Source of the DNA: Candidatus Hydrogenedentota bacterium
GTDB lineage: Bacteria > Hydrogenedentota > Hydrogenedentia > Hydrogenedentales > SLHB01
DNA length: 64,000 nucleotides
Direction of reading: 5' to 3'
Assembly (NCBI GenBank): GCA_045863295.1
Contig: BTWA01000001.1
Coordinates: 212,337 to 276,336, forward strand
Positions 34,427 to 51,116 of this stretch are shown here, in pieces; the first letter of the stretch is position 1; each line of letters opens with the position of its first letter. Below the pieces are notes generated by a model. The model was not told the origin of the DNA and searched no databases. It saw only the letters and a program-made list of their open reading frames with translations. The position numbers and the translations under genes are program-made.

Positions 34427-34612
34427 CGAAGTGACATAATCGGGACATTCGTGTATTGTTGGGCGAGGCATGGCGCGTCCGATTGAACAAGCGGGAGTGC
34501 CAGCACGTTACAACGAAGCAGATGCGAATGGCGCATGGAAATCGCCGGAAATCGGGGCTCCGGACAATCATGTAGTGGGGTGGCCTTGGGTCTCAAGCGA
34601 GATGAAAGTGGA

Positions 34613-34657
34613 GCGCGCCGGCGGACGGTCAACGGCCGTCCGGGCGCGCCCTTTTTG
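34613..34657 (+). terminator. Terminator-like hairpin in the 5' leader of the giant surface protein
   Basis: GCGCGCC..CGGACGGTC/GGCCGTCCG GGCGCGC stem then CCTTTTTG, immediately before the GGAGGA RBS. Confidence 0.55.
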
Positions 34658-34672
34658 TCGGAGGAACCGAAC

Positions 34673-37600
34673 GTGAAGCGAGTAGTGTTGTCCCGTATAT
34701 GCGGCGTGGCCGTTGGCGTCATCGCGTTGGCGCTATTCTCGGTTCCCGCCTTCTCCCAAGCGGCGCCTCCATCGGCCACCTTCGATGCCGAAGATCTGGT
34801 TCCTGATGCGTCAGGACTTCTACCAGGCAATGACTGGGCGCAACTCTTCCGTTTTACGATGTCGACTGAAGACGGCGCTGTCCGGACGCTTGACACGTTG
34901 CAATTCGAGATTCAAGCGGATCCGAAGTTGGGCGATCGTTCGTACAACGTTTTGAGCAACGTGGCACGTCCGCAAGACATCCTTCAGATTGCCATTTTCC
35001 AAGAGGGCCGAGATAGCAGCGGAGAATACAGCGGCGTTCTTGACAATCCCGATTTTCTTGTAAAGGGCGAACCCGGTGGTCCGCTGCAGAATACGTTTCT
35101 TGTATTCAATGTGGATTGCACGCTTGTTTCGCCATTTACCCCGTATGGGACCACGGGAGGCAGCATCGGTAACCGGTCGGGCATGACCTTTGATCTGACC
35201 GGACTTGATTCGTTCAACATCCATCCGGGAGCCGACGATGGAAACTCCTATATCGTAGCTTTCCGCACGTCGTCGTCATGGCTCAACGCGCAGACCTTGT
35301 CATTCGAATTGTTGTTCGCGCAGATGGCTCCGTTTCAATTGACCGGCACACCGCCCGACCTGCAACCGATCGACAGCTACACCCCGGATTTTTATGGCGA
35401 TACGCGTGAAACCCTCGATTCCGAGAACGCGTATTGCACGAGCTATGGCGTGTGGGACGTGCAACCGAGTATTGGGTCAGATCAGACCGGGGCCATTTTC
35501 GGCAGTTCCTGGACGTGGCCGAACACACTGTATACGCCGATGGCCGAGTACCGGCGGAACCGGTTCGACAAACCGGGCAATCTGGTGAACTTTGTAACCG
35601 GCGAGTGGCTGGAACTTCGTCAGTTGTTGCCGATTGAACAGATCTCTCCCTTGCTGGGCATCGATATGCACGGTATCCCAACGCCGTTTATTGGCAGCAG
35701 CGGGACGGTACTGGGAGTCGCTGCTCCGGCGCTTATGCAGGTGAACATGGTGTTGACGGACATTGGGGGTTCGAAAACCAATCCCAATGCCATTCCCGGT
35801 GACGGCGGATTTAACCCTCAGACCGGATTGGAGCACTTGACGGACGACGCCGTTGCGTCGGGCGCGGGTGTGATCGTGGAGGATGCGTACCTCGACGACT
35901 TCGCGTTTAACGGCTTGTGGGTGTATCACGATACCAACAACGATTTCATTTTCAACGAGCCTGAAGAACGCGAAGGCGGCGGTATTACGTTTACGGGCGA
36001 CTACCCGATGTTTCCGGGGCGGAATTATGCGCCGTCGGATTGGCAGCACATCCGCAATCCGGCATGGGGCGGCGATCCCGCATGGACGATTTCTTTGGAT
36101 TTCGAAATATTCGGGCGTCGTCGCACGCTCCCGGATGAAGAACCGACGGGTTTACTTGAACCTACACCGGACGGTGATGCGGCAGCCTATCCAACTATTA
36201 TGAATTCAGACTATTACGTTACCGTGCGTCCGGACAGCGGTTTCGCGGATGCAACCACGCTTCCCGGCGATGGCACGGGCATCACACTGGGTGCGGACTT
36301 TCGTGCGTTTATCCAGCCCCGTTTTCCGGCTGGCGCGGCGACGGGCGGCATTTATTCCCAGAACATGGTGCCGAATCCCGGCAATTGGCAGGCGGACCAG
36401 GTGTGGAACATTCCGAATTCGGGCGAGCCGTGGTGGCCGGAAAAGTTTCTAAACTGGTCCAACGTCAAGCCCACCCGCGTTGGCGGCGTCGATATTCATG
36501 ACTTGGTACTGACCTACGAAACGAACAGCATTTACCGCAACCCGTCGGATATGTTCTACGGGCAAAGCGAAATCTCCACAGGAATTGGCCTAATCACCAA
36601 CTTCAGCCGCTGGCTGGATCCCGCGAACATCATTAGTTCGCGATTCTTCAACGGTGACGAAGTCGGTGTCCAGGACTGGATTTTCTTTAACGCATTTGTG
36701 GACGACCACGTGCATGACGCGTTTCAGTTCCCGTACGAGACGGCGCCGTTCAGCCACCCGGACGATCCGCGGTCGACGTTCTATACGCCGCCCGCGCGTC
36801 CGACCGTGCCTTCCTTCGCGACGTGGCCGTTCAACGCGACGGGTTATTTTGCGAATATCGTCGATCGCGTGGAGCGGTATCCGCGCGAATTTGACTGGCC
36901 GGCGGCATCGCGTCAGGCGCGCACGCTGAAGCAGCACATCGACGCGAGTAGCCAACCGACGGCGATGCTGGGCTTCAACCTCGTGGGCGCGGACGACAGC
37001 ATTACCAACGCGTTTGCGCGTCAGCGTCTGGACCAGATCACGATTGCATTCTGGGGTCCTGATTTCACGCCGAGTGATCTCCTTGCTTTGAGTGCGAACG
37101 GCACTGGATCGACATCCGGCATCTCGCTGATTGAAGACACGACGGGTGACGGCGTGTTTGGATTTACGGGAGCGAACGGCATTGATCCCTTAACGGGCGA
37201 CCTACCGGTACCGCTCACGAATCTTGCGTGGCCCAGCGGTCCGGAGCCGGTCGATTTGAATGGCGACGGCACGGCCGACGACATGAACGGCGACGGCGTT
37301 GTGGATACGCTGGACAACGCGTGGGTGGTTCGGCTTCGTCTGGCGCAGCCGTGGGATCTTCCCGTGGTTGACTCGCCGCGCGTCGGCAATACCGGCCCGC
37401 TGGATGAAGAAGAAGACGACGGCGGCGACGGCGGAGATGGCGGCGATGGTGGTGACGGCGGCGACGACGAAGGCGATCGCCGGAGCGTGGGCGGAAAGTC
37501 GAACATCAACCAGCCGTTGTCGCATCTGGAATTCGAAGAGGCGGGCCAGTCCGTGCAACCGCTTGCTTCGGACAAAGTGGTGCACTTGGCAAGCGCGGAT

Positions 37601-39865
37601 GCGCCGGTAACACGGGCGATTGGTCCTCGCGGTAGCGCGGGCGACGATTTGTTCGTCATCGTGCGCGCGTCCGATCAGATGCGCCGGTTCGAGCAGTTCC
37701 GCGTGGTGGTGCCGGCATTTTTGCCGACCCGCGCGGGCAACGAGCGACTGGCCGGTTTTCAGATTACCCCGCAATTGCCCATCAGTCCGGGCATCTACGA
37801 GAAGTTCAATCCCGAAGAAGAGACGACGCTGGACTTTTTCGGCGGTCCTCCGTTTGGGTTTGACTTGATAGAAGCGAACGTGGCGTCCCGCATCACGGCC
37901 ACGGGCGGCGCGACTCAGAACATCACGCGCAACAGCGGCGACACGTCGGTGCTGGGCATTGATGTGAGCACGAACCGTCCTGCGAAGACGGGCCCGTATC
38001 CGGCGTACGACGGCGCGGTGACGTCCAGCTTCACGACGGGGTTGAACGGCGTGGGCGGCGCGGGCACGTTCGTGGTCGCTGGCGCGGCGTTTCCGGCGGG
38101 CGATTTCACCGACTTTTTCCTGATTGACGGCGCCTACCGTGGCTACCGCATTACGGGCAACACGGCGAATACGTTGTTCCTGGAGGCGGGGGTGCCGCAA
38201 GCGGGCGGTTGGTATATCGACAAAGATCCGACGTTCCTGGAACAGGTGATCGTCGAGTTGTACGACGAAGGGAACGACGGCGCGTTTAATTTGTTCGAAG
38301 ACCTGCTGCCGTTGGGCATTTCGCACGAGACGGCGGGCGTGAAGCTGTACCGCGACAACGATTTCAATCCCTCGAACATCAACGGCATTTTCGATCCCGG
38401 CGACTTGTTGGTACCTCTGGACTTCGCGCCATACCTGATTGGTCAGCCGGGCGAACCGGCGTATCAGGTGATGTTCGCGTTTTCTTCGCCGGGCACGAAC
38501 GGTGGTGCGGGCAGTTTCAACCGCCAGTACGTGCCGAACTCGTTCACGGGCGCGCGCGATTCGGGTGCGGATTTCTTCGTGACGGTATCGACCTCCGCGA
38601 ACATTGCGGAGGGGGACAATCTGCGCGCGGCGATTGCCTCGTGGGGACCGAATACACCGACGCTGCCGGACATCGGCGATTTCACGCCGCCGCCGGTGTC
38701 GCGTACGGGTGAATTCGATTTGTTTGACGAATTTCCGTGGGCCTCTCGCGGACTTGGGTTTATCTCGTACTTCAAGCAGTACAACGATGTGACTCCGGCT
38801 CGTCCATACTACTGGGACTACTACGACCAGTATCCGGAGCCGGATCGCAGCCAGACGGGCCTTACGTGGGTGCGTTCTCGCGCCGCGAAGACGGGCTTGT
38901 CCAGCATCCTGACGGTGGTTCCGAAGGCGACGGATCCGAGCGACCTGGTGATCACGTCGGTGTCTCCGACGATTTTGACCAAGACGATCGCGGCGGCCGG
39001 CCTGGTGCTTACGATTACGGGTAACAACTTCGGCACTTCGCCGACGGTGACGCTCAATGGCACTCCGCTGAACGTGCAGAGCGCGACGAACACGCTGATC
39101 ACCGCGCAGATTGCTGGCGGCACCGTGCTGCCATTGAATGTGGTGATCGAACTGCGGGTGACGAATCCGCTGACGTTGAAGACCGATACGTTTACCGGAT
39201 TTACCGTGGTGGATGCGAATCCGGATCAGGCTCCGACGATTACGTCGGTGAATCCGAGTTCGGGCACGTCGGCGGTGTTCCCGGTGACGGTGATAGGCAC
39301 GAACTTCGAAGATCCGCGCGTCATCTTCGGTCAGACCGTGATGCCGCGGGTGAGCTGGTCGCCCACGCAGATTGTGGTGTCGTTCCCGATCAACGGATTG
39401 CCGACGACGGGCGCGATGAACGTGACGGTGGTGAACACGCGCAACGGTGGCGATTTGCTGTCGGTGACGAAGGTCAACGCGTTCACGTACATCAATAACC
39501 CGAGCGGCGGCGGCGGCGGCGGCGGTTTCCTGGGCGGAGGCGGTTTACCGATCGGCGGTTGCTTTATCGCGACGGCCGCGTACGGTTCGCCTTTCGCCGC
39601 GCACCTGGACACGTTCCGTTCGTTCCGCGACGGTGTGCTGTTGAAGTCGGCCCCGGGCGCGGCGTTTGTGGATGCGTATTACCGGATGAGTCCTGCTCTG
39701 GCTGATGAAGTGGCGCAGCGGCCGTGGTTGGCGGTTGTGGTTCGCACGGTGTTGACGCCGGTGGCGTGGTCGCTGGAGCATCCGATGTTCGCGCTATGCG
39801 TGTTGTTGATGGGTCTCTTCGCTGTTCATCGCGTGCGCCGGTTTGCCCGGTCCACGAGCCGATAA
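34673..39865 (+). CDS. Giant exported surface protein (~1730 aa) with two IPT/TIG domains and a CFI-box-CTERM
   Basis: GTG after GGAGGA, signal peptide ending PAFS; ITSVSP..TITGNNFG and ITSVNP..TVIGTNF; Gly linker, GGCFIATAAYGS..FRD..L..FV..YY..SP, TM, basic tail. Confidence 0.9.
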   Translation: MKRVVLSRICGVAVGVIALALFSVPAFSQAAPPSATFDAEDLVPDASGLLPGNDWAQLFRFTMSTEDGAVRTLDTLQFEIQADPKLGDRSYNVLSNVARPQDILQIAIFQEGRDSSGEYSGVLDNPDFLVKGEPGGPLQNTFLVFNVDCTLVSPFTPYGTTGGSIGNRSGMTFDLTGLDSFNIHPGADDGNSYIVAFRTSSSWLNAQTLSFELLFAQMAPFQLTGTPPDLQPIDSYTPDFYGDTRETLDSENAYCTSYGVWDVQPSIGSDQTGAIFGSSWTWPNTLYTPMAEYRRNRFDKPGNLVNFVTGEWLELRQLLPIEQISPLLGIDMHGIPTPFIGSSGTVLGVAAPALMQVNMVLTDIGGSKTNPNAIPGDGGFNPQTGLEHLTDDAVASGAGVIVEDAYLDDFAFNGLWVYHDTNNDFIFNEPEEREGGGITFTGDYPMFPGRNYAPSDWQHIRNPAWGGDPAWTISLDFEIFGRRRTLPDEEPTGLLEPTPDGDAAAYPTIMNSDYYVTVRPDSGFADATTLPGDGTGITLGADFRAFIQPRFPAGAATGGIYSQNMVPNPGNWQADQVWNIPNSGEPWWPEKFLNWSNVKPTRVGGVDIHDLVLTYETNSIYRNPSDMFYGQSEISTGIGLITNFSRWLDPANIISSRFFNGDEVGVQDWIFFNAFVDDHVHDAFQFPYETAPFSHPDDPRSTFYTPPARPTVPSFATWPFNATGYFANIVDRVERYPREFDWPAASRQARTLKQHIDASSQPTAMLGFNLVGADDSITNAFARQRLDQITIAFWGPDFTPSDLLALSANGTGSTSGISLIEDTTGDGVFGFTGANGIDPLTGDLPVPLTNLAWPSGPEPVDLNGDGTADDMNGDGVVDTLDNAWVVRLRLAQPWDLPVVDSPRVGNTGPLDEEEDDGGDGGDGGDGGDGGDDEGDRRSVGGKSNINQPLSHLEFEEAGQSVQPLASDKVVHLASADAPVTRAIGPRGSAGDDLFVIVRASDQMRRFEQFRVVVPAFLPTRAGNERLAGFQITPQLPISPGIYEKFNPEEETTLDFFGGPPFGFDLIEANVASRITATGGATQNITRNSGDTSVLGIDVSTNRPAKTGPYPAYDGAVTSSFTTGLNGVGGAGTFVVAGAAFPAGDFTDFFLIDGAYRGYRITGNTANTLFLEAGVPQAGGWYIDKDPTFLEQVIVELYDEGNDGAFNLFEDLLPLGISHETAGVKLYRDNDFNPSNINGIFDPGDLLVPLDFAPYLIGQPGEPAYQVMFAFSSPGTNGGAGSFNRQYVPNSFTGARDSGADFFVTVSTSANIAEGDNLRAAIASWGPNTPTLPDIGDFTPPPVSRTGEFDLFDEFPWASRGLGFISYFKQYNDVTPARPYYWDYYDQYPEPDRSQTGLTWVRSRAAKTGLSSILTVVPKATDPSDLVITSVSPTILTKTIAAAGLVLTITGNNFGTSPTVTLNGTPLNVQSATNTLITAQIAGGTVLPLNVVIELRVTNPLTLKTDTFTGFTVVDANPDQAPTITSVNPSSGTSAVFPVTVIGTNFEDPRVIFGQTVMPRVSWSPTQIVVSFPINGLPTTGAMNVTVVNTRNGGDLLSVTKVNAFTYINNPSGGGGGGGFLGGGGLPIGGCFIATAAYGSPFAAHLDTFRSFRDGVLLKSAPGAAFVDAYYRMSPALADEVAQRPWLAVVVRTVLTPVAWSLEHPMFALCVLLMGLFAVHRVRRFARSTSR
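37406..37476 (+). repeat. 9-bp tandem repeat encoding (DGG)n within an acidic linker
   Basis: EEEDDGGDGGDGGDGGDGGDDEGD. Confidence 0.8.
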
Positions 39866-39904: not shown

Positions 39905-40125
39905 ATGCTTGCATGCACGCGGCGCAGAGGACTTCGCGAAAGTCCAGCCGCAGAAACGTCTTGCGCCTGTGCGCGGCGATTCGGTAGGCTTGAGGCCGTA
40001 TTGGGTGGTATTTGCCCGGCGCTGACACGGATGGGGCAGCCACCGGTAGAGTTCGACGCGGATGTAGTGCCCCCTCGGGGACCGATGGGGGCGGGGTGTT
40101 CCGGGATGAACGAGGAGCAATTCCC

Positions 40126-42528
40126 GTGAAGAGAAACGTGAATCTGGCAATCAGGGCCGCTCTGGTGTGTGCTGTCGCCGTAGGATGCATCACCCCCGCG
40201 GAGGCCTTTTATCCCTTCGGCTTTTTCAACGCCACGACAGGTGGCGAACTTCAAATCATCAAATGGCCGCTTGGGACGTTGGATCGGAATGGCAACGGGG
40301 ATGTGGACGGACCCGATGACGGCATCCTGTTGAATTTCGAGACTGGCAATGGGACCGACGGGTTTGACTCCACGGAGATAGCGAAGTTTTTGTCGGGATT
40401 GGAGGAGTGGGAGTTTATTTCGACCGCCTACATGGCATTTACCCGCGGCCAAGACATCGTCGACATTCAATCGCCCGCGATCGATCTATTTAACACGGTT
40501 ACGTTCGAATCGGCCGACGATGTTGATGGCGGATCGAGTGTGACCGGCGGCAGCTACGGCGTTACGGTAGTTTCCAACACCTTCGAGGACACCTTCTTCA
40601 CCGTTGGCAACATTACGTTTCCCATCTCGAGCGGGAAGATCATCGAAGCCGACAACATTGTGGCGGCAGTCGCGCGCGAGACCGAAAATACCGAATTCGA
40701 ATTCTTGAAGGGTCTGGGCGTCATTATGGGCGGCACCACAATCGGAATCGGATATAGTCCGCTCGACAACATCGATCCGACGCTCACGGTGAACGCGGGC
40801 CGCAACATTGAACTGCGCGTAGCAACGCTTCCCAATTTCCAGGGGCTGTTTCAGAATGTTGGCGTTACTTCCAGCATGTTGAACGATTTTTGCTTCTACG
40901 ATGACGGGAACAACATCTATATCGATTCCCACCAGGACGTTAGCCCTGACGACATTGCCGCGGTTACGTTTATGTACCCGCGCGCCAATGTTGACTTGCT
41001 TTTTTCGATCGAACAGCGCGCGCGCACTTATGCCATTGACGGATTTCCTTCGTTGCCGATAGCGGGCGGCCATATACTCGCGTGGTGCGATGCGGACAAC
41101 AATCCGGCGACGGCGCGGGTGCCTTGGATCGATACGTTGTCCGGGTTGTATTTTTCCGGCGACAACGATTCCTACCGCGGCCACTTTTCGCTGCATGGGC
41201 TGTTCAAGCAGGTGACGCTGGGCACCGGATTCGTGCCCACGCAAACGTACACGCCGACGTATGTGGTGAGCAATGAGGAATTTGATCCCATTGTATTCGG
41301 CGGCGACGAGCGCACGGTTTACGATACTACGCACGGCGGATTTAACGGGAATCCGCAATCCTATACCGGCCACGGTTTCGACAGCGGTTTCACGTCCGAA
41401 GTATTCAATGAAAATGGGAATCGTGTTGGCAATCTTGCGCAGAATCTTGGAGCGGGCACTCCGCTTGTCTATGACTTGACGCGCCGTTACGTGGTAAGCA
41501 CGGACAGCAACAAGAGTCTGGACACGATTCTTGCGCTGGGCCGTCCGATGTTCGGGACGGAAAGCAAGATTTGTCCGCTCAACGTTGCGGTTGCGGGTAT
41601 GGTTGGTCCCCGGTCGCACGAGACGGTCAATTTGCTGCGCGCGTTTCGCGACGATGTTCTGTTGAAGACGGGCGTTGGAGCATCGATGGTGGATGGGTAT
41701 TACCGGATGTCCCCCGCGATGGCCGCGTATCTTGTCGATCATCCGAATGTGTTGGCGGTGGTGCGGCTGGGAATTGGCGTGAGCAACTGGGTCATCGCGT
41801 ATGCGGAATGGATTCTGGCGATGACCGCGGGGCTGATGATCGTCTCCTTGTTGCGCCGTGCAAATCGCCGCCGTTTGGCTCGCGCGTCGGCCGCGGTTGC
41901 GGTGGCCCTGGGCGTTGCGGGTTCGGCAAATGCGATGCTGCTTCCGATGGACATTACGGACTATACGAAAGTGACGACGGACGTGGTTCAGGGCACGGTT
42001 TGTTCCGTGGAGAGCCGGTGGGCCGACGGCGGTACGCAGATTGTGACGGATGTTTCGATCCGGGTGGACGATGTGGTGAAAGGCCGTAGCAACAAGGGCA
42101 GCCAGTTACACATTCAGTTGCCGACGGGTCGCGTGGGTGCGATTGGGCGGACGTCGCCCAGTCTTCCTGAATTCAAGAAGGACGAGGAAGTTTTGCTGTT
42201 TCTGGATTGCCAGCCGAACGGCAACTATATGGTTTATGCGGGTATCGCGGGCAAGTATCTGGTGACGGAACTGGAAGGGCGCGAAGGCAAGTATGTGACG
42301 GCCGAGACGTTTGCGGCGCAGCGCCGGTTGTTCGCGGAGGCCGAGAAGATCTACCCGGAAGCGAAAGAGGCGCGGCTGGCGCGCGGCGAACGCGCCCCGA
42401 TGACGCGGCCGGTTTATGTGCCGTTGGACGCGCTGAAGGAGCACCTTCGCGAGATTGTGAACGAGTCTGACGAAGCGGGCACGACCGAATCCGCCAAAGC
42501 GCCGGAGACGGTTGCTTCGCTTCGATAA
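40126..42528 (+). CDS. Exported multidomain protein: matrixin-like domain, internal CFI-box-like domain, second signal-like helix, C-terminal beta domain
   Basis: GTG after GAGGAG; signal ending AEA; IIEADNI, SSML, VSPDDIAAVTFMYP; LRAFRDDVLLKTGVG..VDGYYRMSP. Confidence 0.8.
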   Translation: MKRNVNLAIRAALVCAVAVGCITPAEAFYPFGFFNATTGGELQIIKWPLGTLDRNGNGDVDGPDDGILLNFETGNGTDGFDSTEIAKFLSGLEEWEFISTAYMAFTRGQDIVDIQSPAIDLFNTVTFESADDVDGGSSVTGGSYGVTVVSNTFEDTFFTVGNITFPISSGKIIEADNIVAAVARETENTEFEFLKGLGVIMGGTTIGIGYSPLDNIDPTLTVNAGRNIELRVATLPNFQGLFQNVGVTSSMLNDFCFYDDGNNIYIDSHQDVSPDDIAAVTFMYPRANVDLLFSIEQRARTYAIDGFPSLPIAGGHILAWCDADNNPATARVPWIDTLSGLYFSGDNDSYRGHFSLHGLFKQVTLGTGFVPTQTYTPTYVVSNEEFDPIVFGGDERTVYDTTHGGFNGNPQSYTGHGFDSGFTSEVFNENGNRVGNLAQNLGAGTPLVYDLTRRYVVSTDSNKSLDTILALGRPMFGTESKICPLNVAVAGMVGPRSHETVNLLRAFRDDVLLKTGVGASMVDGYYRMSPAMAAYLVDHPNVLAVVRLGIGVSNWVIAYAEWILAMTAGLMIVSLLRRANRRRLARASAAVAVALGVAGSANAMLLPMDITDYTKVTTDVVQGTVCSVESRWADGGTQIVTDVSIRVDDVVKGRSNKGSQLHIQLPTGRVGAIGRTSPSLPEFKKDEEVLLFLDCQPNGNYMVYAGIAGKYLVTELEGREGKYVTAETFAAQRRLFAEAEKIYPEAKEARLARGERAPMTRPVYVPLDALKEHLREIVNESDEAGTTESAKAPETVASLR

Positions 42529-42557: not shown

Positions 42558-42583
42558 CCCGCCCTTGGGGCGGGTTTTTTATT
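42558..42583 (+). terminator. Intrinsic terminator
   Basis: CCCGCCC-TTG-GGGCGGG then TTTTTTATT. Confidence 0.8.
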
Positions 42584-43134
42584 GTTCACGGGGTGACTGG
42601 CTTGGTTTTTTGGGCGAACCCGGATGTTTCACGACAATGTGGGAATACCTGTGTATCTGGCGTCTTGGCCGAGCCCTGTCCAGACCAAAGTTGGGACCCT
42701 GTGCCTGTGAAATATCCTTCGCGGATGAAGCGTGCGCTATCCTGTGTGAGCATTTTCCATCGCGCACGGCACACGCGCGGTGAAAGATGCGGGCTAAGTT
42801 GAAGTGGCTCAGAAACTTGCGAATCTGGGTGGGGTTTGGCATCATACTTCGCGCCCCGAGTGGCTTGTGGGTTACAGTGGGTGGTCCGTCAACCTTTCCG
42901 TGTTGACCGTCGTTTCCGTTTGGGCCAAGGCCTGCCTTGCACCTTCTGGATTGGTGCATTGACGGCAGGCCGGGGCTGGAAGGGATTCCGGCCGTGGTCC
43001 CGATGGACCTGATTGGGCCGAGTTGGTGTTGAACAACGGGATGAACCGATCCCTCGCCCTGGCTGGTCCAACCCATTAAACACAACGGTCCGCCAATCCA
43101 GAACGTTGACGTATCCTGGCATTACGGAGTGGTT

Positions 43135-44064
43135 ATGGTTCGCGGATTACTAATCAGACAGTCTTTCATGGCGCTGGATCTGGCGTTGGCGATCCTTGCG
43201 GCGGTGGTGCTATTCATGGTGACCGGCAAGCTGCTGGACAACGGACGGTTGTCTCCGGTTGACGCGACGGTGGATGAGGCATCGGCGGCGTATGAAGTGC
43301 CTATCTGGCAGGTTGGCGAACGTCCCGCTTACGACGGAATCGTGACCCAGGGATTGTTTGGGGATGCGGGCCGGACAGCGCAGAAAGATGCTCCGGCGGC
43401 ACCGCCGCCCGAGCCGACGGTGGACGTCGCACCGAGCACGTTGAAGCTTTTCGGCGCGGGCGGAGCTTCGCCGGAAGATCCGTTGGGTTTTGCCATTATC
43501 GAGAATGCGGCTGCGCGCACGCCGGAGGAGCGTTTGCAGACGTATTTTATCGGGCAGGAAGTGATGCCTCAGCTCAAGCTGCTGGAGGTGTATCACCGGA
43601 AGGTGATCCTGTTTGACGAGACGAAGAATCAGAAGCAGGAGTTGTCGATGGAAGGGGTGGGCAGCGGTCCTTCGGCCGCGACTGCGTTGGCGGCGAGCGG
43701 CCAGCCCGGGGCGCCCGCGGGAGCGGAGTTTACGCCGGGGATGGCTGTGTTGAGCAAGAACGAGGCGATGGCCGAGTTGAGCAAGTACGATTACAATCAG
43801 TTGATGAGCACGTTGAATCCGCAGATGCATACGGATGAGAACGGCAAGATCAATGGCATTACATCGGACAACATCAATGCGATTCCGTTGGCGCGGCGGA
43901 TCGGGCTGCAGAACGGGGACGTGATACAGTCCGTGAACGGGGTGAACATCGACAGCGAAGAGCGTCTGATCGAGATCTTTACCCGGTTTCAGAATTCCGA
44001 CAGTTTCCGGCTCGATGTGAATCGCGGCGGCCGATCGCAGAACGTTTCGTTTCGCTTGAACTGA
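43135..44064 (+). CDS. gspC: T2SS protein GspC with C-terminal PDZ
   Basis: N-terminal TM, LF motif, LKLFG..AII HR domain, GLQNGDVIQSVNG PDZ; first gene of the operon (alternative GTG 43129). Confidence 0.82.
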   Translation: MVRGLLIRQSFMALDLALAILAAVVLFMVTGKLLDNGRLSPVDATVDEASAAYEVPIWQVGERPAYDGIVTQGLFGDAGRTAQKDAPAAPPPEPTVDVAPSTLKLFGAGGASPEDPLGFAIIENAAARTPEERLQTYFIGQEVMPQLKLLEVYHRKVILFDETKNQKQELSMEGVGSGPSAATALAASGQPGAPAGAEFTPGMAVLSKNEAMAELSKYDYNQLMSTLNPQMHTDENGKINGITSDNINAIPLARRIGLQNGDVIQSVNGVNIDSEERLIEIFTRFQNSDSFRLDVNRGGRSQNVSFRLN

Positions 44065-44126
44065 TTGGCGCGTCGGCGAATCGCGATTGAGCAAAACGCA
44101 AGGCAGGCAACAGGGGAGTAGCGGCG

Positions 44127-46805
44127 TTGTTGAAGGGGACTCGGACAGCGATAGTCGTGGTGTTTTCGACGACGGGCCTTTGGGCCTGGGCGAGCCCGGC
44201 GCAGATGATTTCGAACCGGGCCGCGCGCACGGCGAACGCGCCGATCGAGGCGGAACTCACCGCCAACCCGGAAGCCGTGGAAGCATTGCGCCAACAGAAC
44301 CAGTACGTTCCGAACCGGGGCCAGGGCGAATTGAAGCAATTGGCCCAAGGCGAGGCGGAAGCGCCGCAGCCCGATCCGAACGCGGTGATAGAGGCGAATG
44401 TGGAGCCGGCTCCCGATCCGAATGCGGAAGCGCCACCGCCGCCGCCGGAACCTTCAGGCATTCAGCCGGTGATTCCTGTGCGGCCGGCGCAGCCGGGGCC
44501 TCCGAATCGGGGTATTCGCGTGCCTTCTTCGGTGCCAGGCGGCCCGGCGGGCGCGCCTCCACCGGCACCGGGCGGCGAGGTGAAGATTACGGAGGGCGCG
44601 GACACGGTTTCGTTGGGCAACACGACGACCGAGCCGTTGCGCAACGACGGCGAACCGCAGGACAAGCCGCTGTATCTCGATTTCAACAATGCGCAATTGA
44701 GCGACGTGATTGAATCGATTGGGCGCATGTTGGGGAAGAATTTCGATATCGATCCGACGGTGGGTCAGCAGCCGGTGACCATTATTTCTCATCAGCGCAT
44801 TCCCGCGGAGTTGTTGTTGAATGTGCTTGAATCCATTTTGACGACGCGCGGCGCGCAGTTGGTGGAGAAGGCGGACGGCTACCTGATTCAAGTGAGGCCC
44901 GTGGGCGAAGACGCGGAGCACCACAAGTTCATTCACGAATCCACTTCGCTACCTGATGGCGACGACGGCAATTACTGGCACATTGTGCAGGTTCAGCATC
45001 AGCGTGCCGAGGAATTGGCGACGATCATCAGCAAGCTGGGATCGAAGTTTGCCACGGCGGATGTGTACGGCAAGACCAACACGTTGATTTTGCACGACAA
45101 CGCGGACGGCATCCGGAACATGCTGATGTTTTTGGAGAAGGTGGATCTGCCCGGGTACAACGAAGTGTTGGAGTATGTGCCGCTGGAATTTGCGCGCGCG
45201 GAAGTTGTGGCGACGCAGTTGCAGGAGATTCTGGTGTCGGCCTCCGGGGAGGCGGCGCCCGCGCCGACGGTTCCCGGGCAGCCGGTGCGTCCGCAGATTG
45301 TGCGGCCGACGACGGCGGGCGGGCGGAACATTGCGAACATCCCGCAGCAGAAGAATCAGACTATTGTTTCGGGCGATCCGTTGTCGATGCAGATTGTGCC
45401 TGACGAGCGGTTAAATGCGTTGATCATCAAGGCCTCCGAGCCGTTGGTGGAAGAGATTTACCGGCTTATTGAGAAGCTTGATCAACCGACTCCGCCGGAT
45501 GCGAATAACATGCATGTGGTGCATCTTCAATATGCGCGCGCGGAAGACGTGGAGGCGGCGCTGGGGGCGCTGCTCGGATCATCGCCGAGGCCGACCGGTG
45601 GCGGCGGTGGCGGCGGCGGCGGCGGTGCAGGCGGCGGGGGAGCCGGCGGTGGGGGCGGCGGTGCCGTGTCGTCGGGCGAAGTGCAGATTTTTGAAAAGAA
45701 CGTAACGATTACGCAGTTCGAGTCGACCAACTCGTTGATCATCATTGCTTCGCCCCAGGATTACGCGGTGATTCAGCAGGTGATCAGCAACATTGACATG
45801 CCGAAGCGGCAAGTGCATGTGGAGGCGGTCATTCTGGAAGTGGGCATCAATGACCGTTACCGGTTGTCGGTGGAAGCGGCGGAATTGACGGCGAACGACT
45901 ATTTCGCGTTGAACAACATTGTGAGTCTGGCCAACGTGCTGAACGATGGACCGCTTGCGGCCACGGAAGGCACGGATTCGCCGGTGTTTGCGGGCGGTAT
46001 AATTGACGGAACCACGGAGATTTCCATTCCCGACGGTGCGGGCGGATTCATCACGGAAGAAGTGCCCAATGTGCCGTTTTTGATGACGGCCTTGGAGAAC
46101 CTGACGGCGTTGGATGTGTTGTCGCGTCCGAGCGTGCTGATTGTGGATAACGAAGAGGCGAACATCGTGGTGGGTCAACAGGTGCCGTTTATCAGCGGCA
46201 ACCAGCGTTCGCTTGGCGACAGCGGCGGCACCAACGCGTTTGTGTTCAATACGATTCAGCGCGAGGACGTGGGTATCAAGATGAAGGTAACTCCGCAGAT
46301 CAGCGAGGGCGACTATGTGCTGATGGAGTTGGAGGTTGAGGTGTCGTCCACCGTGCCGAGCGACGTGGGTCTGGATCCGAACCTGGTGGGTCCGACGGTG
46401 CAATTGTCGCAGGTGACGAACCAGTTGGTGATCAAAGACGGCGCCACGGGCATTGTGGGCGGTTTGATTAGCGAGACGACGGACCGTTCGCGCCGGCAGA
46501 CGCCGGTTCTTGGCGATGTGCCGGTATTGGGTTGGCTGTTCAAGCGCAAGGACGATGTGCGGCGCAAGCGGAATTTGGTGGTGTTGGTGACGCCTCATAT
46601 TCTCAAGGAATACATCGATACGGAACGGCGGACGGAAATTCAGTTGGAAGAGATGCGCGAAGCGAACATGGACGTGTTTTTCGAAAAGGGCATCATCAAG
46701 AAGGTGCAGAAGAAGCACGACATGCGCAAGAATTTCCGGCCGACGATGACGGAAATCGATTCGATACAAAAGGAGCGCTTCACCGGTGCCAATCAGCCGC
46801 AGTAA
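44127..46805 (+). CDS. gspD: T2SS secretin GspD
   Basis: LDFNNAQL N0 domain, PDERLNALII, QVHVEAVILEV, DVGIKMKVTPQI, PVLGDVPVLGWLF. Confidence 0.95.
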   Translation: MLKGTRTAIVVVFSTTGLWAWASPAQMISNRAARTANAPIEAELTANPEAVEALRQQNQYVPNRGQGELKQLAQGEAEAPQPDPNAVIEANVEPAPDPNAEAPPPPPEPSGIQPVIPVRPAQPGPPNRGIRVPSSVPGGPAGAPPPAPGGEVKITEGADTVSLGNTTTEPLRNDGEPQDKPLYLDFNNAQLSDVIESIGRMLGKNFDIDPTVGQQPVTIISHQRIPAELLLNVLESILTTRGAQLVEKADGYLIQVRPVGEDAEHHKFIHESTSLPDGDDGNYWHIVQVQHQRAEELATIISKLGSKFATADVYGKTNTLILHDNADGIRNMLMFLEKVDLPGYNEVLEYVPLEFARAEVVATQLQEILVSASGEAAPAPTVPGQPVRPQIVRPTTAGGRNIANIPQQKNQTIVSGDPLSMQIVPDERLNALIIKASEPLVEEIYRLIEKLDQPTPPDANNMHVVHLQYARAEDVEAALGALLGSSPRPTGGGGGGGGGGAGGGGAGGGGGGAVSSGEVQIFEKNVTITQFESTNSLIIIASPQDYAVIQQVISNIDMPKRQVHVEAVILEVGINDRYRLSVEAAELTANDYFALNNIVSLANVLNDGPLAATEGTDSPVFAGGIIDGTTEISIPDGAGGFITEEVPNVPFLMTALENLTALDVLSRPSVLIVDNEEANIVVGQQVPFISGNQRSLGDSGGTNAFVFNTIQREDVGIKMKVTPQISEGDYVLMELEVEVSSTVPSDVGLDPNLVGPTVQLSQVTNQLVIKDGATGIVGGLISETTDRSRRQTPVLGDVPVLGWLFKRKDDVRRKRNLVVLVTPHILKEYIDTERRTEIQLEEMREANMDVFFEKGIIKKVQKKHDMRKNFRPTMTEIDSIQKERFTGANQPQ

Positions 46806-46837
46806 CCGCGCCGGGACTTGTCCGGGAGACACTGGTC

Positions 46838-48577
46838 ATGCTGGCTAGCGCACGAGGCACGCTGTTGGGCGAGATCTTGTTCCGCTTGGGGCATGTTCAT
46901 GCGGAGCAGATCGACGAAGCGCTTGAGTTGCAGCGTATCCGGCCGAAGCGCATTGGCGAGATTCTGACCGATCTGGGTTATGTCGAGGAAGACCATGTCC
47001 TGGAGGCGTTGAGCGAGCAGTTTGGCATCCCTTTCGACAACGACGTGAAGAACACGATCGATTCTTCGCTGACGACGAAAGTGCCGATTAATTTCATTCG
47101 CGAATACCAGATGGTGCCGTACAAGCGCAACGGCGCGTGCATCTACGTGGCGATACACGATCCGATGAACCTGCTTCCCCTGGAGGACCTGCGGCTGCTT
47201 CTGGACAGCCCGGTTCAGCCGGTGCTTTGCCGGAAAGAGGCCATTCAGAGCGTGCTCGATTCGTATTTCGATCAGCAGGGCGAGAATGCGGGCGATATGA
47301 TCGACAACATCGTGCTCACGGGCGATGAGGACAGCGACGTGCCGACGCTGGAAGATCTTTCCACGGACCGCGACCTGCTGGATCTTGCAAACGAAGCGCC
47401 TATCATCAAATTAATCAACCTGTTGATTTCCGGGGCCGTGCGCGAGCGGGCGTCGGATATTCACATCGAGCCGTTTGAGCGCGAGGTTCGCGTGCGGTAC
47501 CGGATCGACGGTGTGTTGTACGAGAAGTACTCCGTGCCGAAGTCGCAGCAGGCGGCCATTGTCTCCCGCGTCAAGATCATGGCGAACTTGAATATTGCGG
47601 AGCACCGGCTTCCGCAGGACGGGCGCATCAAGATCCGGCTGAGCGGCAAGGAGATCGACATTCGCGTGTCGATCATTCCGATTGCACACGGCGAGCGTGT
47701 CGTGATGCGCATTTTGGAGAAGGGCACGTTTCTGATTGGGTTGGAAGAATTGGGCATGGATGCCCACGATTACAACCAGATCGACAAGTTGATTCGCAGT
47801 TCTCACGGTATACTTCTGGTGACGGGCCCGACGGGATCTGGAAAATCGACGACGCTGTATGCGTCGTTGCAGCGGGTGAATTCGCCGGACAAAAACATCA
47901 TAACCGTGGAAGATCCGATTGAATACCAGATGACGGGGATAGGGCAGATCCAGGTGCGGCCCAAGATCGGGCTGACGTTCGCGGCCGGGTTGCGGAGCAT
48001 TCTTCGCCAGGACCCGGATGTGATTCTGGTTGGCGAAATCCGCGATTTGGAGACGGCCGACATGGCCATTCAGGCATCGTTGACCGGGCACCTGGTGTTT
48101 TCCACGTTGCATACCAACGACAGTGCGGGCGCGATAACGCGGCTTGTGAACATGGGTATTGAACCGTTTTTGGTGACTTCGTCGACGATTGCGATATTGG
48201 CGCAACGGTTGGTTCGCCGCATATGTCCGAGTTGCCGCGAGGAATATACGCCGGAACCGGAGAGCCTGATCGAACTTGGCGTTCCTCCGCACAAGGTTGT
48301 GGGGTTGAGCGCGTTTCGGGGCACGGGATGCGACAAGTGCCAAGGCCGGGGCTATTTTGGGCGAACGGGGATATTTGAGTTGTTGGTGATGACGCCCGAG
48401 GTGCAGGAAATGACCCTGAAAGGGTACGACTCCAACCTGATCAAGAAGGAGGCCCGCAAGCAGGGCATGCGCACATTGCGCGAAGACGGCGCGGTCAAAG
48501 TGTTTAACGGACACTCCACCATCGAGGAAGTCATGCGCGTGACGCGCGACGATATTCTGATGGAATTGGTGGATTAG
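46838..48577 (+). CDS. gspE: T2SS ATPase GspE
   Basis: ASDIHIEP, RLPQDGRI, GPTGSGKST, LRQDPD, STLHTND, CPSC..CDKC; between gspD and gspF. Confidence 0.94.
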   Translation: MLASARGTLLGEILFRLGHVHAEQIDEALELQRIRPKRIGEILTDLGYVEEDHVLEALSEQFGIPFDNDVKNTIDSSLTTKVPINFIREYQMVPYKRNGACIYVAIHDPMNLLPLEDLRLLLDSPVQPVLCRKEAIQSVLDSYFDQQGENAGDMIDNIVLTGDEDSDVPTLEDLSTDRDLLDLANEAPIIKLINLLISGAVRERASDIHIEPFEREVRVRYRIDGVLYEKYSVPKSQQAAIVSRVKIMANLNIAEHRLPQDGRIKIRLSGKEIDIRVSIIPIAHGERVVMRILEKGTFLIGLEELGMDAHDYNQIDKLIRSSHGILLVTGPTGSGKSTTLYASLQRVNSPDKNIITVEDPIEYQMTGIGQIQVRPKIGLTFAAGLRSILRQDPDVILVGEIRDLETADMAIQASLTGHLVFSTLHTNDSAGAITRLVNMGIEPFLVTSSTIAILAQRLVRRICPSCREEYTPEPESLIELGVPPHKVVGLSAFRGTGCDKCQGRGYFGRTGIFELLVMTPEVQEMTLKGYDSNLIKKEARKQGMRTLREDGAVKVFNGHSTIEEVMRVTRDDILMELVD

Positions 48578-48592
48578 CGGGGCTCACAGGCC

Positions 48593-49819
48593 ATGGCGGT
48601 TTTCGAATACCAGGCGCTCGCGAAGAACGGCAAGACCGTGAAAGGGATCATCGATGCCGATTCTCCCGTCGCGGCGCGCCGCAAATTGCGCGATCAGGAG
48701 CTTTTTCCGACGCAGTTGATCGAGACGTTTGCGAAGGGCGGCGCGGAAGCGCAGGCGCAGGAGAAGGGCGGTAGCGTCTTTACGCGCGTGTCGCAGCGCG
48801 ATATTGCGATGATGACGCGTCAGGTAGCGGTTCTGTTGCAGGCGGGGATGCCGCTGGTGGAAGCGATGAGCGCGTTGATGCAGCAAACGTCCAACTCGCG
48901 GCTGCGGAAGATCATCTTCGATGCGCGCGATCGGGTGAACGAAGGCGTCACGTTGGCGGATGCGCTGGAACCGCACAAGCGCGTGTTCAGCGAGCTTTAC
49001 CGGAACATGGTCCGGGCGGGCGAGCAGAGCGGTGCGTTGGAGCAGGTGTTGTTCCGTCTCGCGGACATTACCGAACGTCAGGTGAAGCTGAAGAACAAAG
49101 TGACTTCGCTGCTGGCGTATCCGATTCTCATGCTGCTGGTGGGTTTGGGTGTGATTGTTTTCCTGATGATGGTGATTGTGCCCAAGATCACCGAGATATT
49201 CGCCAAGCAGAAGCAGGAATTGCCTTTCGTCACGAAGGCGTTGATAGGAACGTGCAACTTTATCGGCGATTGGTGGTTTGTGATTTTGCTTGCGATCGCG
49301 GCGGCGTTCGTTGCGTGGCGGATTTGGGTATCGAAAGATGCCGGCCGCAGACGCTGGGATCGGATCAAGCTCCGGCTGCCGCTCTTCGGACCGCTGTACA
49401 TCAAGATGATTTGCGTACGATTCGCACGCACGCTGGGCACGATGCTTGAAAGCGGCCTGGTCATGATCAAGGCGCTCGAAGTGGTGAAGACGGTCGTCCA
49501 GAACCGGGTCATTGAAGAAGGCATGGACGAAGTGAAGAGCAGCGTTCGGCGCGGGCGGGATTTGTCGATTCCGTTGAAGGAAATGGGCCATTTCCCGCCG
49601 ATGTTGATACACATGGTGGAATTGGGCGAGCGCAGCGGCGAAATGGAGTCCATGCTTATCAAGGTGGCGGAGACCTACGAGGAAGATGTGGAATTGACGA
49701 TCAACGGGCTGGTGAGCCTGTTGGAGCCTGTCATCATCCTTGTAATGGGTTTATTTGTCGGGTTTTTGGTGATGTCGATCCTGATGCCCATCCTCAGCAT
49801 GGGCAGCGGGATGCGATAA
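48593..49819 (+). CDS. gspF: T2SS platform protein GspF
   Basis: MAVFEYQAL, AGEQSGAL, AYP, GERSG, LLEP. Confidence 0.94.
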   Translation: MAVFEYQALAKNGKTVKGIIDADSPVAARRKLRDQELFPTQLIETFAKGGAEAQAQEKGGSVFTRVSQRDIAMMTRQVAVLLQAGMPLVEAMSALMQQTSNSRLRKIIFDARDRVNEGVTLADALEPHKRVFSELYRNMVRAGEQSGALEQVLFRLADITERQVKLKNKVTSLLAYPILMLLVGLGVIVFLMMVIVPKITEIFAKQKQELPFVTKALIGTCNFIGDWWFVILLAIAAAFVAWRIWVSKDAGRRRWDRIKLRLPLFGPLYIKMICVRFARTLGTMLESGLVMIKALEVVKTVVQNRVIEEGMDEVKSSVRRGRDLSIPLKEMGHFPPMLIHMVELGERSGEMESMLIKVAETYEEDVELTINGLVSLLEPVIILVMGLFVGFLVMSILMPILSMGSGMR

Positions 49820-49900
49820 TACGAGTAGAGCGAAGTATTCCGGCGTTTCCGGATAGTACGCCCGGATGCCGGTGGACAGGACAACAAGGAGAGCCGTGCC

Positions 49901-50341
49901 ATGAAAGAACAGAAGCGGGCACATGTACGTCACAATGCGGGTTTCACGCTCATGGAACTCATGATCGTAATTGTGATTCTTGGGATGCTGGCCGCCGTCG
50001 TCGTGCCCAACATGCTGGGGATTGCGGATCAAGGCAAGGTTACGGCGGCGAAGGCCCAGATCCATTCGTTTCGCCAGGCGCTGACGATGTACAAGCTGGA
50101 GATGAGCAAGTTGCCGACGTCGGCCGAAGGCCTGGATGCCCTCATCAGCAACGGCAAAAAGAATTTTCTCGATCAGGAGGCGCTTCCGTTGGATCCGTGG
50201 GGCAATCCGTATGTGTACCGTTGCCCCGGGTCGGATGGCCGCGATTACGAGATCATGAGTTACGGCGAAGACGGTGTCGAGGGCGGATCTGACTACGCGG
50301 CGGACATCAAGAGTTGGCTCTTGGGCGAAAAAGAGACGTGA
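49901..50341 (+). CDS. gspG: Major pseudopilin GspG
   Basis: G|FTLMELM, GLDAL, DPWGNPY, SYGEDG..GG..ADI. Confidence 0.95.
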   Translation: MKEQKRAHVRHNAGFTLMELMIVIVILGMLAAVVVPNMLGIADQGKVTAAKAQIHSFRQALTMYKLEMSKLPTSAEGLDALISNGKKNFLDQEALPLDPWGNPYVYRCPGSDGRDYEIMSYGEDGVEGGSDYAADIKSWLLGEKET

Positions 50342-50351
50342 GCACATCGTA

Positions 50352-51116
50352 ATGTACCGGCAAAGGCGGCAAAGCGGTTTTACGCTGTTTGAATTGGCGG
50401 TGGTGATTGCGCTGGTGGCAGTCGTCATGGCCGTTGCGTTGCCGCAGCTTGCTCCGGCGCTTACGACCGGCAAGTTGGAAGGCGCGGCACGGCGTCTCGC
50501 CGGTTATGGCCGGGCCGCGCTGGCGCATTCCGCATTTTCCAAAGAGCCGTTGGTTTTTCGCATTGATATGGACAAGGGCGAGTATTGGACGGTTCGACGC
50601 ATCGTCAAGGAGGATTCGCTTTTTCTGGAAGAGGAAGAGGCGTCCGACGACGAGGAAACCGCCAAGCAGCCACTTACCAAGGACGTATTGCTGGAAGTGC
50701 TGAGCGAGGGGTCGGTTGACGAACAAAGCGAGCGGCTGATTGAGATTGAGCGGCAGTTTGACGATTACTTCCGGTTTGGTCTTGAGGCACGGGCGCGCAA
50801 CGTCAAACACGACGGGCTGCTTGCGGGGATCAACCCGCTTGAAGACGCCGAGTTCAAGTTGAAAGACGACGAAGGGGAGATTGAAGAGGAGATCAAGATC
50901 AGTCTCCTCGAGCGGACCTACGTGCCGCCCGATGTGCGGATTCAGCGGGTGATCATCGGGGCCGAAGAATTTACCAAGGGCATCGTGGATATCGAAGTAA
51001 CCCCCATGGGCCTTTATGAAACGGTCGAAGTGGAAGTCGGGTCGGAAGAAGGCGGGCTGTATCGCATCACGCTGGATCCGATTACCGGCGGCACCCATTT
51101 GGCCCGAGAGGAGTGA
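50352..51116 (+). CDS. gspH: Minor pseudopilin GspH-like
   Basis: G|FTLFEL N-methylation motif, C-terminal LDPITGG; follows gspG. Confidence 0.75.
   Translation: MYRQRRQSGFTLFELAVVIALVAVVMAVALPQLAPALTTGKLEGAARRLAGYGRAALAHSAFSKEPLVFRIDMDKGEYWTVRRIVKEDSLFLEEEEASDDEETAKQPLTKDVLLEVLSEGSVDEQSERLIEIERQFDDYFRFGLEARARNVKHDGLLAGINPLEDAEFKLKDDEGEIEEEIKISLLERTYVPPDVRIQRVIIGAEEFTKGIVDIEVTPMGLYETVEVEVGSEEGGLYRITLDPITGGTHLAREE

Follow-up and report, generated by a model that had tools for sequence, protein, structure and literature searches.

A conserved Hydrogenedentota gene joins a degenerate matrixin-like protein to a TIMP/NTR-like domain behind a predicted internal signal peptide

Results

We analysed a 64,000-nucleotide stretch of contig BTWA01000001.1 (GenBank assembly GCA_045863295.1; positions 212,337 to 276,336, forward strand) from a Candidatus Hydrogenedentota bacterium, hereafter the window, and focused on a single gene that probably encodes a two-part exported precursor. 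The gene lies on the plus strand, as do all features described below, and occupies positions 40126-42528 of an open frame that extends from 40012 to 42528. It encodes 800 amino acids from a likely GTG start at 40126, and a Shine-Dalgarno-like GAGGAG can be read from the sequence 7 nucleotides 5' of this codon (40113..40118). An earlier note on this DNA had listed a signal peptide, an exported region, an internal CFI-box, a transmembrane helix, the basic stretch RRANRRR and a second hydrophobic helix. All of these elements lie where it had placed them, and two could be refined: the CFI motif is degenerate, and the exported region proved to be a matrixin-like domain that lacks HExxH in this genome.

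Signal peptide 1 covers residues 1–27 (40126..40206) and reads MKRNVNLAIRAALVCAVAVGCITPAEA before FYP, with a cut predicted from the sequence at AEA↓FYP. The ectodomain between it and the CFI-box region measures ~455 amino acids and starts with a matrixin-like metzincin domain (residues 28–290; 40207..40995), which was assigned by Foldseek and by alignment to orthologs bearing HExxHxxGxxH. Here, the zinc motif is degenerate (GLGVIMGGTTIGIGYSP), and a Met-turn (SSM) and the segment DVSPDDIAAVTFMYPR are retained. The middle of the ectodomain (residues 291–482; 40996..41571) is β-rich, as judged from the secondary structure of an AlphaFold2 model and from conserved columns in an alignment of 20 sequences (A2); no family was matched to this region. 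An internal CFI-box-CTERM-like domain follows (residues 483–549; 41572..41772), and then a transmembrane helix (TM1, residues ~556–576; 41791..41853), a hydrophobic stretch that would act as a stop-transfer anchor and whose position is kept in all orthologs. The Arg-rich loop RRANRRRLARA (residues 577–587; 41854..41886) is predicted to be cytoplasmic; the median across 54 junctions is 5 basic and 0 acidic residues. Behind the loop, a second hydrophobic stretch, ASAAVAVALGVAGSANA, ends at 41934. Residues 588–603 (41887..41934) resemble the h and c regions of a signal peptide in their combined length and in the conservation of Ala at positions -3 and -1, and signal peptidase I is predicted to cut behind Ala603 (ANA↓M). 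The C-terminal part begins with MLLPMD and runs for 197 amino acids (residues 604–800; 41935..42525) to the stop codon at 42526-42528. Based on its AlphaFold2 model, structure searches and a complex model, it is predicted to be a TIMP/NTR-like OB-fold domain with C-terminal helices, referred to below as the C-domain. The same order of elements recurs in 20 of the 20 aligned orthologs and in 34 further loci, and is therefore more than a product of chance.

The window's own genome holds a single copy of the C-terminal part. A homologue search by words returned only the protein itself and one relative of 781 amino acids. Among genomes of the same family and order, the C-terminal part was matched in 55 of 61, almost always within open frames of ~780–960 amino acids. 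We retrieved all 54 other loci besides the window. In 54 of the 55 genomes, the N-terminal part and the C-domain share one frame across the junction; the remaining locus (L069) lies at a contig end, which makes it untestable. Two loci carry frameshifts away from the junction, one near residue 400 (L025) and one within the C-domain (L078). A phylum-wide profile search detected the C-domain in 119 of 135 genomes, 117 of them in the window's order. Frames of at least 640 amino acids were present in 106 of these 117 genomes, and all five that were inspected of the 11 order genomes with shorter frames turned out to be contig ends or frameshifts. Moreover, short contigs from four other studies cover positions 41535-42096 and beyond with no indel and two base substitutions (42189 and 42239), and one independent contig (X2, 41854-42064) bridges the predicted cut site without change. 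The earlier note had proposed to check that homologs keep the fusion and that no stop codon had been missed; the in-frame junctions, the long frames across the order and the indel-free independent contigs settle both points and rule out an assembly artefact or missed stop. The open reading frame is one real gene, conserved across its order of Hydrogenedentota.

Outside this order, the two parts are encoded apart. Two genomes from other orders of the phylum carry the C-domain only in frames of 206–213 amino acids. In the syntenic gene cluster of the sister-order genome G061, a giant protein with a terminal CFI-box is followed by a separate TIMP-like gene, a matrixin gene, and the genes for GspC and GspD. 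The TIMP-like gene encodes a signal peptide and the TIMP-like domain (VADA↓TTLIPMD), and the matrixin combines an intact HELGHFFGLDH with a canonical CFIATVAHG box and a transmembrane helix, ending right after the helix and KLIRRSSG. The predicted mature end in the window, ANA↓MLLPMD, aligns with the signal-peptide cut of the stand-alone G061 protein (ADA↓TTLIPMD). This arrangement indicates that the CFI-box was formerly terminal and that the partner formerly had its own signal peptide. The window's order has joined the two parts the other way round while preserving the signal peptide. The separate genes of the sister order make the fusion a derived, though old, state.

Further in-frame joins exist upstream of the gene. 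In four genomes (loci L046, L047, L049 and L106 of genomes G021, G027, G014 and G078), a giant protein is in frame with the focal protein, yielding frames of 2174 to 5163 amino acids. The joint consists of the giant's transmembrane anchor, a basic stretch and the ordinary signal peptide of the focal protein (RRGRGVRLMNLRARRGILLGLVVAMGLGLGADAYA before FFP). A similar long frame in genome G077 was judged by frame length only. The same type of joint has therefore arisen more than once, and joints of a transmembrane helix and a signal peptide are tolerated. By their sequences, these fusions would be three-part precursors.

The NCBIfam model NF041770 (CFI_box_CTERM) matches residues 493–549 of 800 with 51.8 bits (E-value 5e-14; profile positions 8–64 of 69; curated cut-off 40 bits). 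As in other proteins of this family, an invariant Cys (Cys483, at nucleotide 41572, in 20 of the 20 sequences of alignment A2) precedes an LRxFRDxxLL...YYxxSP core, here LLRAFRDDVLLKTGVG up to VDGYYRMSP, and a transmembrane helix and basic cluster follow (residues ~556–576, then RRANRRR). Unlike in these proteins, the domain is not C-terminal but has 251 residues behind it, and the Cys-Phe-Ile signature, as we derived it from the family name and the CFIATAAYG of the neighbouring giant protein, is degenerate: the window protein reads CPLNVAV, and profile positions 1–7 are unmatched. The sister-order ortholog, by comparison, keeps the canonical box at its end. Contig C5 of the window's genome encodes two tandem proteins of ~540–580 amino acids (L004 and L005) that combine a serine-protease-like GSSGSP motif with a CFI-box-like domain (44 and 36 bits) and have no transmembrane helix after this domain. 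The LRxFRD...YYxxP core can thus exist without a membrane anchor.

In its features, the second hydrophobic segment corresponds to a cleavable signal peptide. Across the 54 junctions, position -3 holds Ala in 52 cases, Val in one and Gly in one, and position -1 holds Ala in 51, Gly in two and Ser in one; these counts stem from related, and so not independent, sequences and from cut sites that could be moved by as many as 4 residues in search of small ones. Pro or Gly is found at -7 to -4 in 47 of 54 junctions. Measured from the last basic residue, the cut site is a median of 20 residues away (range 17–27), save for two cases in which an Arg at -2 breaks the measure. These values match those of signal peptide 1 in the orthologs, which has Ala at -1 in 51 of 52 sequences, Phe at +1 in 49 of 52 and a median h and c length of 20. 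The segment thus has the basic n-region, the h-region length and the small -3 and -1 residues of an internal Sec signal peptide. A lipoprotein signal was ruled out, as there is no Cys at the cut site. Internal translation initiation was also rejected as the main route, since inspection of the alignment by eye, with no formal test made, revealed neither a Met nor a start context that is conserved. Several genes for signal peptidase I are present in the genome. The earlier note had predicted a cut behind the second helix, and we infer from these features, which resemble those of the protein's own N-terminal signal peptide, that signal peptidase I cuts here.

The AlphaFold2 model of the C-domain, based on a 21-sequence alignment, reached a pLDDT of 91.5 and a pTM of 0.84. 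In a Foldseek search against the PDB, the NtA domain of agrin, TIMP-2, the NTR module of PCOLCE and TIMP-1 ranked first (E-values ~1e-3). A full-library VIA-align search returned N-TIMP-3 from the TACE complex (3cki_B) as best match, with a Z-score of 9.9 and a root-mean-square deviation of 2.8 Å over 115 of 121 residues (model residues 2–179 on chain residues 3–121). The next 12 hits were all NTR, C345C or TIMP modules; the top 13, NtA included, span Z-scores of 9.9 to 6.4, compared with 6.1 at most for generic OB folds. In a protein-language-model atlas, the closest clusters are labelled 'hypothetical protein', and the nearest named ones are TIMP, NtA and NTR with weak scores of 0.86-0.81. 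The model shows an NTR-type OB fold with the N-terminal segment and helix. A PDB-chain sequence search with the C-domain profile gave only chance matches to designed proteins, and a sub-threshold Pfam match to DUF4131 (16.5 bits against a cut-off of 31.6) was dismissed as a resemblance of a transmembrane-plus-OB arrangement. We class the C-domain as TIMP/NTR-like in its predicted fold and not as a member of the TIMP family.

With E-value limits of 1e-3, 1e-10 and 1e-30, searching 1.84 billion representatives with the C-domain profile yielded 14,461, 5,067 and 101 hits, respectively. Proteins of 750–850 amino acids with the domain at about 600–800 make up most of the best hundred matches. Many of the lower-ranked matches are ~190-amino-acid proteins in which the domain starts at residue 25–35. 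Twenty such stand-alone sequences (alignment A3) have an N-terminal signal peptide and a mature end that is mostly Thr or Ser, in the form AxA↓TT[VI]. The C-domain belongs to a large unannotated family that begins right after a signal peptide. Five of the stand-alone sequences were used to retrieve 23 loci, which come from Myxococcota, Acidobacteriota, Chloroflexota, Zixibacteria, Planctomycetota, Sumerlaeota and other groups. For 19 of these loci, Pfam places a Peptidase_M10 match at or above the cut-off either behind the domain within one frame or in the adjacent downstream open reading frame. One further locus (L088) scores just below the cut-off (21.5 bits), and three (L094, L096 and L099) have no Peptidase_M10 match, L099 ending at a contig edge just after HEFGH. 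The family is therefore tied to matrixins across phyla. The earlier note had suggested a likeness to the N-terminal module of bacterial matrixins and had called this module a prodomain-like OB-fold. The likeness and the OB fold hold, and the term prodomain does not: the module is TIMP/NTR-like, an inhibitor-type partner and not a classical prodomain. The domain follows a signal peptide in all three arrangements, that is, stand-alone, fused N-terminally to a matrixin, and fused C-terminally as in the window.

Orthologs of the N-terminal part from other families of the order carry HExxHxxGxxH (e.g. LVHEIGHLLGLAHTP), a Met-turn (TPTM) and the segment DLAPDDIxGxxxLYPR, and two of them (L037 and L040) match Pfam Peptidase_M10 (PF00413) with 30.3 and 31.4 bits at a cut-off of 24. 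Of 52 orthologs, 24 have an intact HExxH zinc motif; the other 28 have lost it, among them the window protein, which has GLGVIMGGTTIGIGYSP at the aligned place. For the window protein, the Pfam scan returned nothing above threshold and no Peptidase_M10 match. The Met of the Met-turn is near-invariant (M224 of alignment A2), and the Met and the DDI...YPR segment persist where the zinc motif has been lost. The mature end of the matrixin part is itself conserved as F-[YF]-P-x-G, with Pro3 and Gly5 invariant. An AlphaFold2 model of the window ectodomain had a pLDDT of 78.8, and its top 50 Foldseek hits are all metzincins, among them serralysins, an astacin, MMP-7/8/13 and karilysin, with weak E-values of 2e-3 or worse. 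The window protein thus has the metzincin fold and Met-turn and lacks HExxHxxGxxH and an M10 profile match. Because the zinc motif is lost while the Met and the DDI...YPR segment are retained, the window protein is a matrixin-like pseudo-enzyme, catalytically degenerate. The catalytic Glu or His has been lost repeatedly with the TIMP-like domain retained, in the 28 Hydrogenedentota orthologs and in an Acidobacteria record (L101) whose degenerate matrixin motif reads HLLGH. Pseudo-matrixins may hence be common. Locus L050 of genome G029 carries a ~450-amino-acid insertion in the matrixin-like part, in a frame of 1248 amino acids, and reads ...GSSGSPL... at the place of the zinc motif, which recalls the serine-protease-like proteins on contig C5.

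The complex of the two halves was predicted from window ectodomain residues 28–540 (20-row alignment) and the C-domain (21 rows). The ipSAE score was 0.77 (0.76, 0.79 and 0.77 in the individual runs), versus 0.00 for all three controls; in the calibration, 116 of 157 solved complexes reached the mark used, as against 2 of 215 mismatched pairs, counts that are rough for user-made alignments. The partner's pLDDT did not fall below 81, and 67% or more of the contacts were shared between runs. On the C-domain, the interface comprises residues 1–5, 31–36, 63–77 (LPTGRVGAIGRTSPS) and 91–105, among others. On the N-terminal part, it comprises a strand at 108–129, which pairs with C-domain residues 66–77, the region of the degenerate zinc motif (170–185), residues 226–228 after the Met-turn, and residues 357–380. 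The C-domain is thus predicted to dock into the degenerate matrixin cleft, in a pose that resembles TIMPs lying in the clefts of MMPs. The complex prediction proposed by the earlier note therefore passes with its controls; as a model, it supports binding and is not proof of it.

Upstream of the gene, at 34535..39865, lies a giant surface-type protein of 1776 amino acids. It contains TIG and CoaZ (choice-of-anchor-Z) repeats and a poly-Gly run, and its CFI-box is canonical and terminal (CFIATAAYG...; NF041770, 84.2 bits, residues 1676–1743). Such a protein precedes the focal gene in 20 of 20 loci. The gap between the two genes measures 260 nucleotides (39866-40125). They may be co-transcribed; a scan for sigma-70-like promoters gave 0 matches in 39700-43200. 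A terminator-like hairpin with 7 GC pairs, CCCGCCC-TTG-GGGCGGG followed by a T run, starts 30 nucleotides 3' of the stop codon (42558..42583); with 4 terminator-like sites found and 4.2 expected, it is a consensus match only. Directly downstream, at 43129..55342, Pfam hits delineate a complete type II secretion operon, comprising GspC with a PDZ domain, the secretin GspD, the ATPase GspE, GspF, pseudopilins, GspK and a GspL-like protein. The order giant protein, focal gene, GspC and GspD was found in 18 of 20 loci, the other two having no GspC or GspD within the 3 kb retrieved, and GspC and GspD follow the matrixin gene in the sister order as well. The gene's fixed place between the giant CFI-box protein and the type II secretion operon points to an uncharacterised pathway for surface display or secretion in Hydrogenedentota. 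GlyGly-CTERM signals, which act with rhombosortase, are C-terminal anchor signals that feed into type II secretion, and the locus may be analogous to that system.

Discussion

We consider it probable that the gene encodes a two-part exported precursor that is resolved at an internal signal peptide. Signal peptide 1 would send the matrixin-like ectodomain across the inner membrane co-translationally, and the CFI-box-like domain together with TM1 would stop the transfer, leaving the Arg-rich loop in the cytoplasm. The next hydrophobic segment would serve as a second, internal signal peptide and restart translocation. Cleavage by signal peptidase I after Ala603 would then free the 197-residue TIMP/NTR-like domain with a new N-terminus, while the matrixin-like part would remain anchored via the hairpin of TM1 and the signal peptide. 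The freed domain would bind 1:1 in the substrate cleft of the matrixin-like domain. The internal signal peptide could plausibly be explained by a need of the partner for a free N-terminus: the matrixin part has a conserved mature end of its own, and whichever way round the two were directly fused, one of these ends would be buried. In orthologs that bear HExxH, the partner could be a built-in latency factor or inhibitor that keeps the enzyme latent. Since the zinc site is lost in this genome, the window pair is most likely a non-catalytic heterodimer kept for a structural or adaptor role, probably in connection with its neighbours, the giant CFI-box protein and the type II secretion operon. 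The earlier note had proposed that one open reading frame gives two extracytoplasmic products, and the conserved fusion, the signal-peptide features and the complex model all support this proposal. The data show the domain order, its conservation, the fold assignments and the family's tie to matrixins, whereas cleavage, topology, binding and function are what we infer.

Several observations weigh against this interpretation. The window protein has no HExxH, as is the case for 28 of 52 orthologs, so that an inhibitor has no target activity here; the C-domain is conserved all the same, from which a role beyond inhibition can be argued. In the sister order, the TIMP-like gene lies upstream of the matrixin and not downstream, and the fusion thus needed a rearrangement. 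The latitude allowed in placing the cut site favours AxA. The C-domain gave no sequence match to the Pfam and NCBIfam TIMP/NTR models (PF00965, PF01759), its Foldseek E-values are marginal at ~1e-3, and a Z-score of 9.9 is only moderately above the 7–8 typical of unmatched models. An N-terminal Cys1 and conserved disulfides are a feature of TIMP/NTR proteins; the C-domain shows neither the TIMP-type Cys1 nor the disulfide pattern, and alignment A1 contains no invariant Cys. As MMP-TIMP complexes have been solved, the complex score may partly reflect likeness to known structures. Finally, the residue at the new N-terminus is variable (Gln 17, Leu 11, Ser 11 and Arg 6 of 54); Gln is the commonest, as opposed to Thr or Ser in most of the stand-alone family. 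An N-terminal Gln could cyclise and block the amine, a modification described as occurring in Bacteroidetes (PMC5837995).

Other explanations have to be measured against the same data. That a missed stop codon, a frameshift or a chimeric assembly joined two neighbouring genes, as an artefact or a recent accident, might be suspected from the separate genes of the sister order and from the nature of the genome, a metagenome-assembled draft of 88 contigs. With the fusion in frame in nearly all related genomes and through most of the order, and with contigs of four independent studies free of indels, the chance of this is negligible; moreover, loss of a stop codon alone could not have produced this fusion, because the sister order has the two genes the other way round. 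A cytoplasmic C-domain, with the second hydrophobic segment not inserted, would fit the short, Ala-rich h-region but conflicts with the positive-inside loop before the segment, with the export of all stand-alone relatives by N-terminal signal peptides and with a predicted partner in the periplasm, and we regard it as very improbable. A better case can be made for an uncleaved transmembrane hairpin within a single polytopic protein, in which both domains would be periplasmic and the TIMP-like domain would be tethered in cis without a free N-terminus. A topology of signal peptide, outward-to-inward helix, basic loop and inward-to-outward helix is equally compatible with this model, and the variable +1 residue gives no obvious need for a specific free N-terminal residue. 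Yet Ala at -3 and -1 is near-invariant, with Pro or Gly upstream, in 54 diverged orthologs, and the h and c length of ~20 after the last basic residue is that of the true signal peptides of the same proteins. In addition, every other arrangement of the family places the domain right after a cleavable N-terminal signal peptide, and C-domain residues 1–5 lie within the predicted interface. We therefore judge an uncleaved hairpin to be unlikely.

A further alternative accepts the two products and differs on function: the C-domain, instead of inhibiting, would assist folding as a chaperone, serve as an adaptor towards the giant CFI-box protein or the type II secretion system, or be itself a protease substrate. 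This alternative draws on the retention of the C-domain in the orthologs that have lost the catalytic motif, and on the strict synteny with the giant protein and GspC/GspD. It can also point to the TIMP-like lipoprotein of Listeria, for which cleavage by its metzincin, and not inhibition of that enzyme, has been reported (PMC8235301). Against it stand the predicted interface, which covers the cleft elements (the edge strand, the helix region of the zinc motif and the segment after the Met-turn), and the best-known function of the fold, metzincin inhibition via the N-terminus, as presented in PMC9890683; neither point is decisive. We hold this alternative to be quite unlikely.

Taken together, the observations allow a broader and more tentative reading, which we regard as possible rather than probable. 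A very large bacterial TIMP/NTR-like family may consist of dedicated matrixin partners that need a free N-terminus, and animal TIMPs and NTR modules might perhaps have their prokaryotic root in it. In Hydrogenedentota, such a partner would have been fused via an internal signal peptide behind a C-terminal membrane anchor, with one open reading frame giving two proteins, or three in frames of up to 5163 amino acids. As the arrangement survives repeated loss of catalysis, this reading implies a second, non-proteolytic role of the heterodimer at the type II secretion locus.

Four aspects are new: a wide unannotated TIMP-like family that is tied to bacterial matrixins; the C-terminal, permuted fusion of a TIMP-like domain behind an internal signal peptide; the interruption of a C-terminal sorting-type domain; and the survival of the pair once catalysis is lost. 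If cleaved as predicted, the protein would count among the few polyproteins of bacterial cells that signal peptidase I resolves, and would illustrate how another exported protein can come to follow a C-terminal sorting or anchor domain. A family of thousands without a Pfam or NCBIfam name gains a predicted fold and a testable function, namely binding in the cleft of bacterial matrixins as partner or inhibitor. With zinc sites lost repeatedly and the partner kept, pseudo-protease complexes can be studied here in a natural system. The findings also link bacterial matrixins to TIMP-like regulation, which by the account of the Listeria paper is otherwise unrecorded (PMC8235301).

Our literature searches found only the Listeria and potempin papers on bacterial TIMP-like/NTR proteins and matrixin prodomains, viral cases only for internal signal peptides in bacterial polyproteins, and no paper mentioning 'CFI-box'. 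The closest structural parallel is with animal TIMPs and NTR modules (MEROPS I35; PF00965, PF01759; agrin NtA; complement C345C). The predicted C-domain shares with them the OB barrel with an N-terminal segment and helix, and its model superposes on N-TIMP-3 from residue 2. Further likenesses are the position directly after a signal peptide, a matrixin-type metzincin as partner, and predicted cleft contacts by the first five residues and the connector loop. TIMPs are described as binding the catalytic zinc through their N-terminal amino group (PMC9890683). Unlike TIMPs, the C-domain has no match to their sequence models, no Cys1 and no conserved disulfides; its first residue varies, and it has extra C-terminal helices. 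It is also bacterial and stands C-terminal to its partner behind an internal signal peptide.

The Inh/AprI family consists of serralysin inhibitors that are small and encoded beside their target peptidase. Potempins, too, are reported to be small β-barrel inhibitors encoded beside the target metallopeptidase; they are outer-membrane lipoproteins that insert loops, not the N-terminus (PMC9890683). The stand-alone TIMP-like gene immediately upstream of a matrixin resembles this arrangement, whereas folds and sequences differ and the N-terminus, not a loop, would enter the cleft. In the mtz-tim locus of Listeria (Boichis et al. 2021, PMC8235301), a metzincin adjoins a predicted TIMP-like protein, and the pair is reported to be conserved together. 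Tim is described there as a lipoprotein encoded by a separate downstream gene and cut by the metzincin ~50 residues in; its TIMP-likeness was predicted by threading, and its authors state that they found no earlier record of bacterial TIMP-like proteins (PMC8235301). In contrast to Tim, the C-domain lies behind a type I signal peptide, is fused to its partner, and belongs to a family that occurs in many diderm phyla.

The predicted processing, for its part, is reminiscent of viral polyproteins such as those of flaviviruses and bunyaviruses, for which internal signal peptides are textbook knowledge. There, as proposed here, a transmembrane segment is followed by a signal-peptide-like segment, and one translation product gives rise to two membrane or exported proteins. 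Very few cellular bacterial polyproteins that are split at internal signal peptides are known, one being the cytochrome b/c1 precursor FbcH of Bradyrhizobium. Unlike in these systems, the products predicted here are a pseudo-protease and its cleft-binding partner, and in some genomes the precursor would comprise three proteins in a frame of up to 5163 amino acids.

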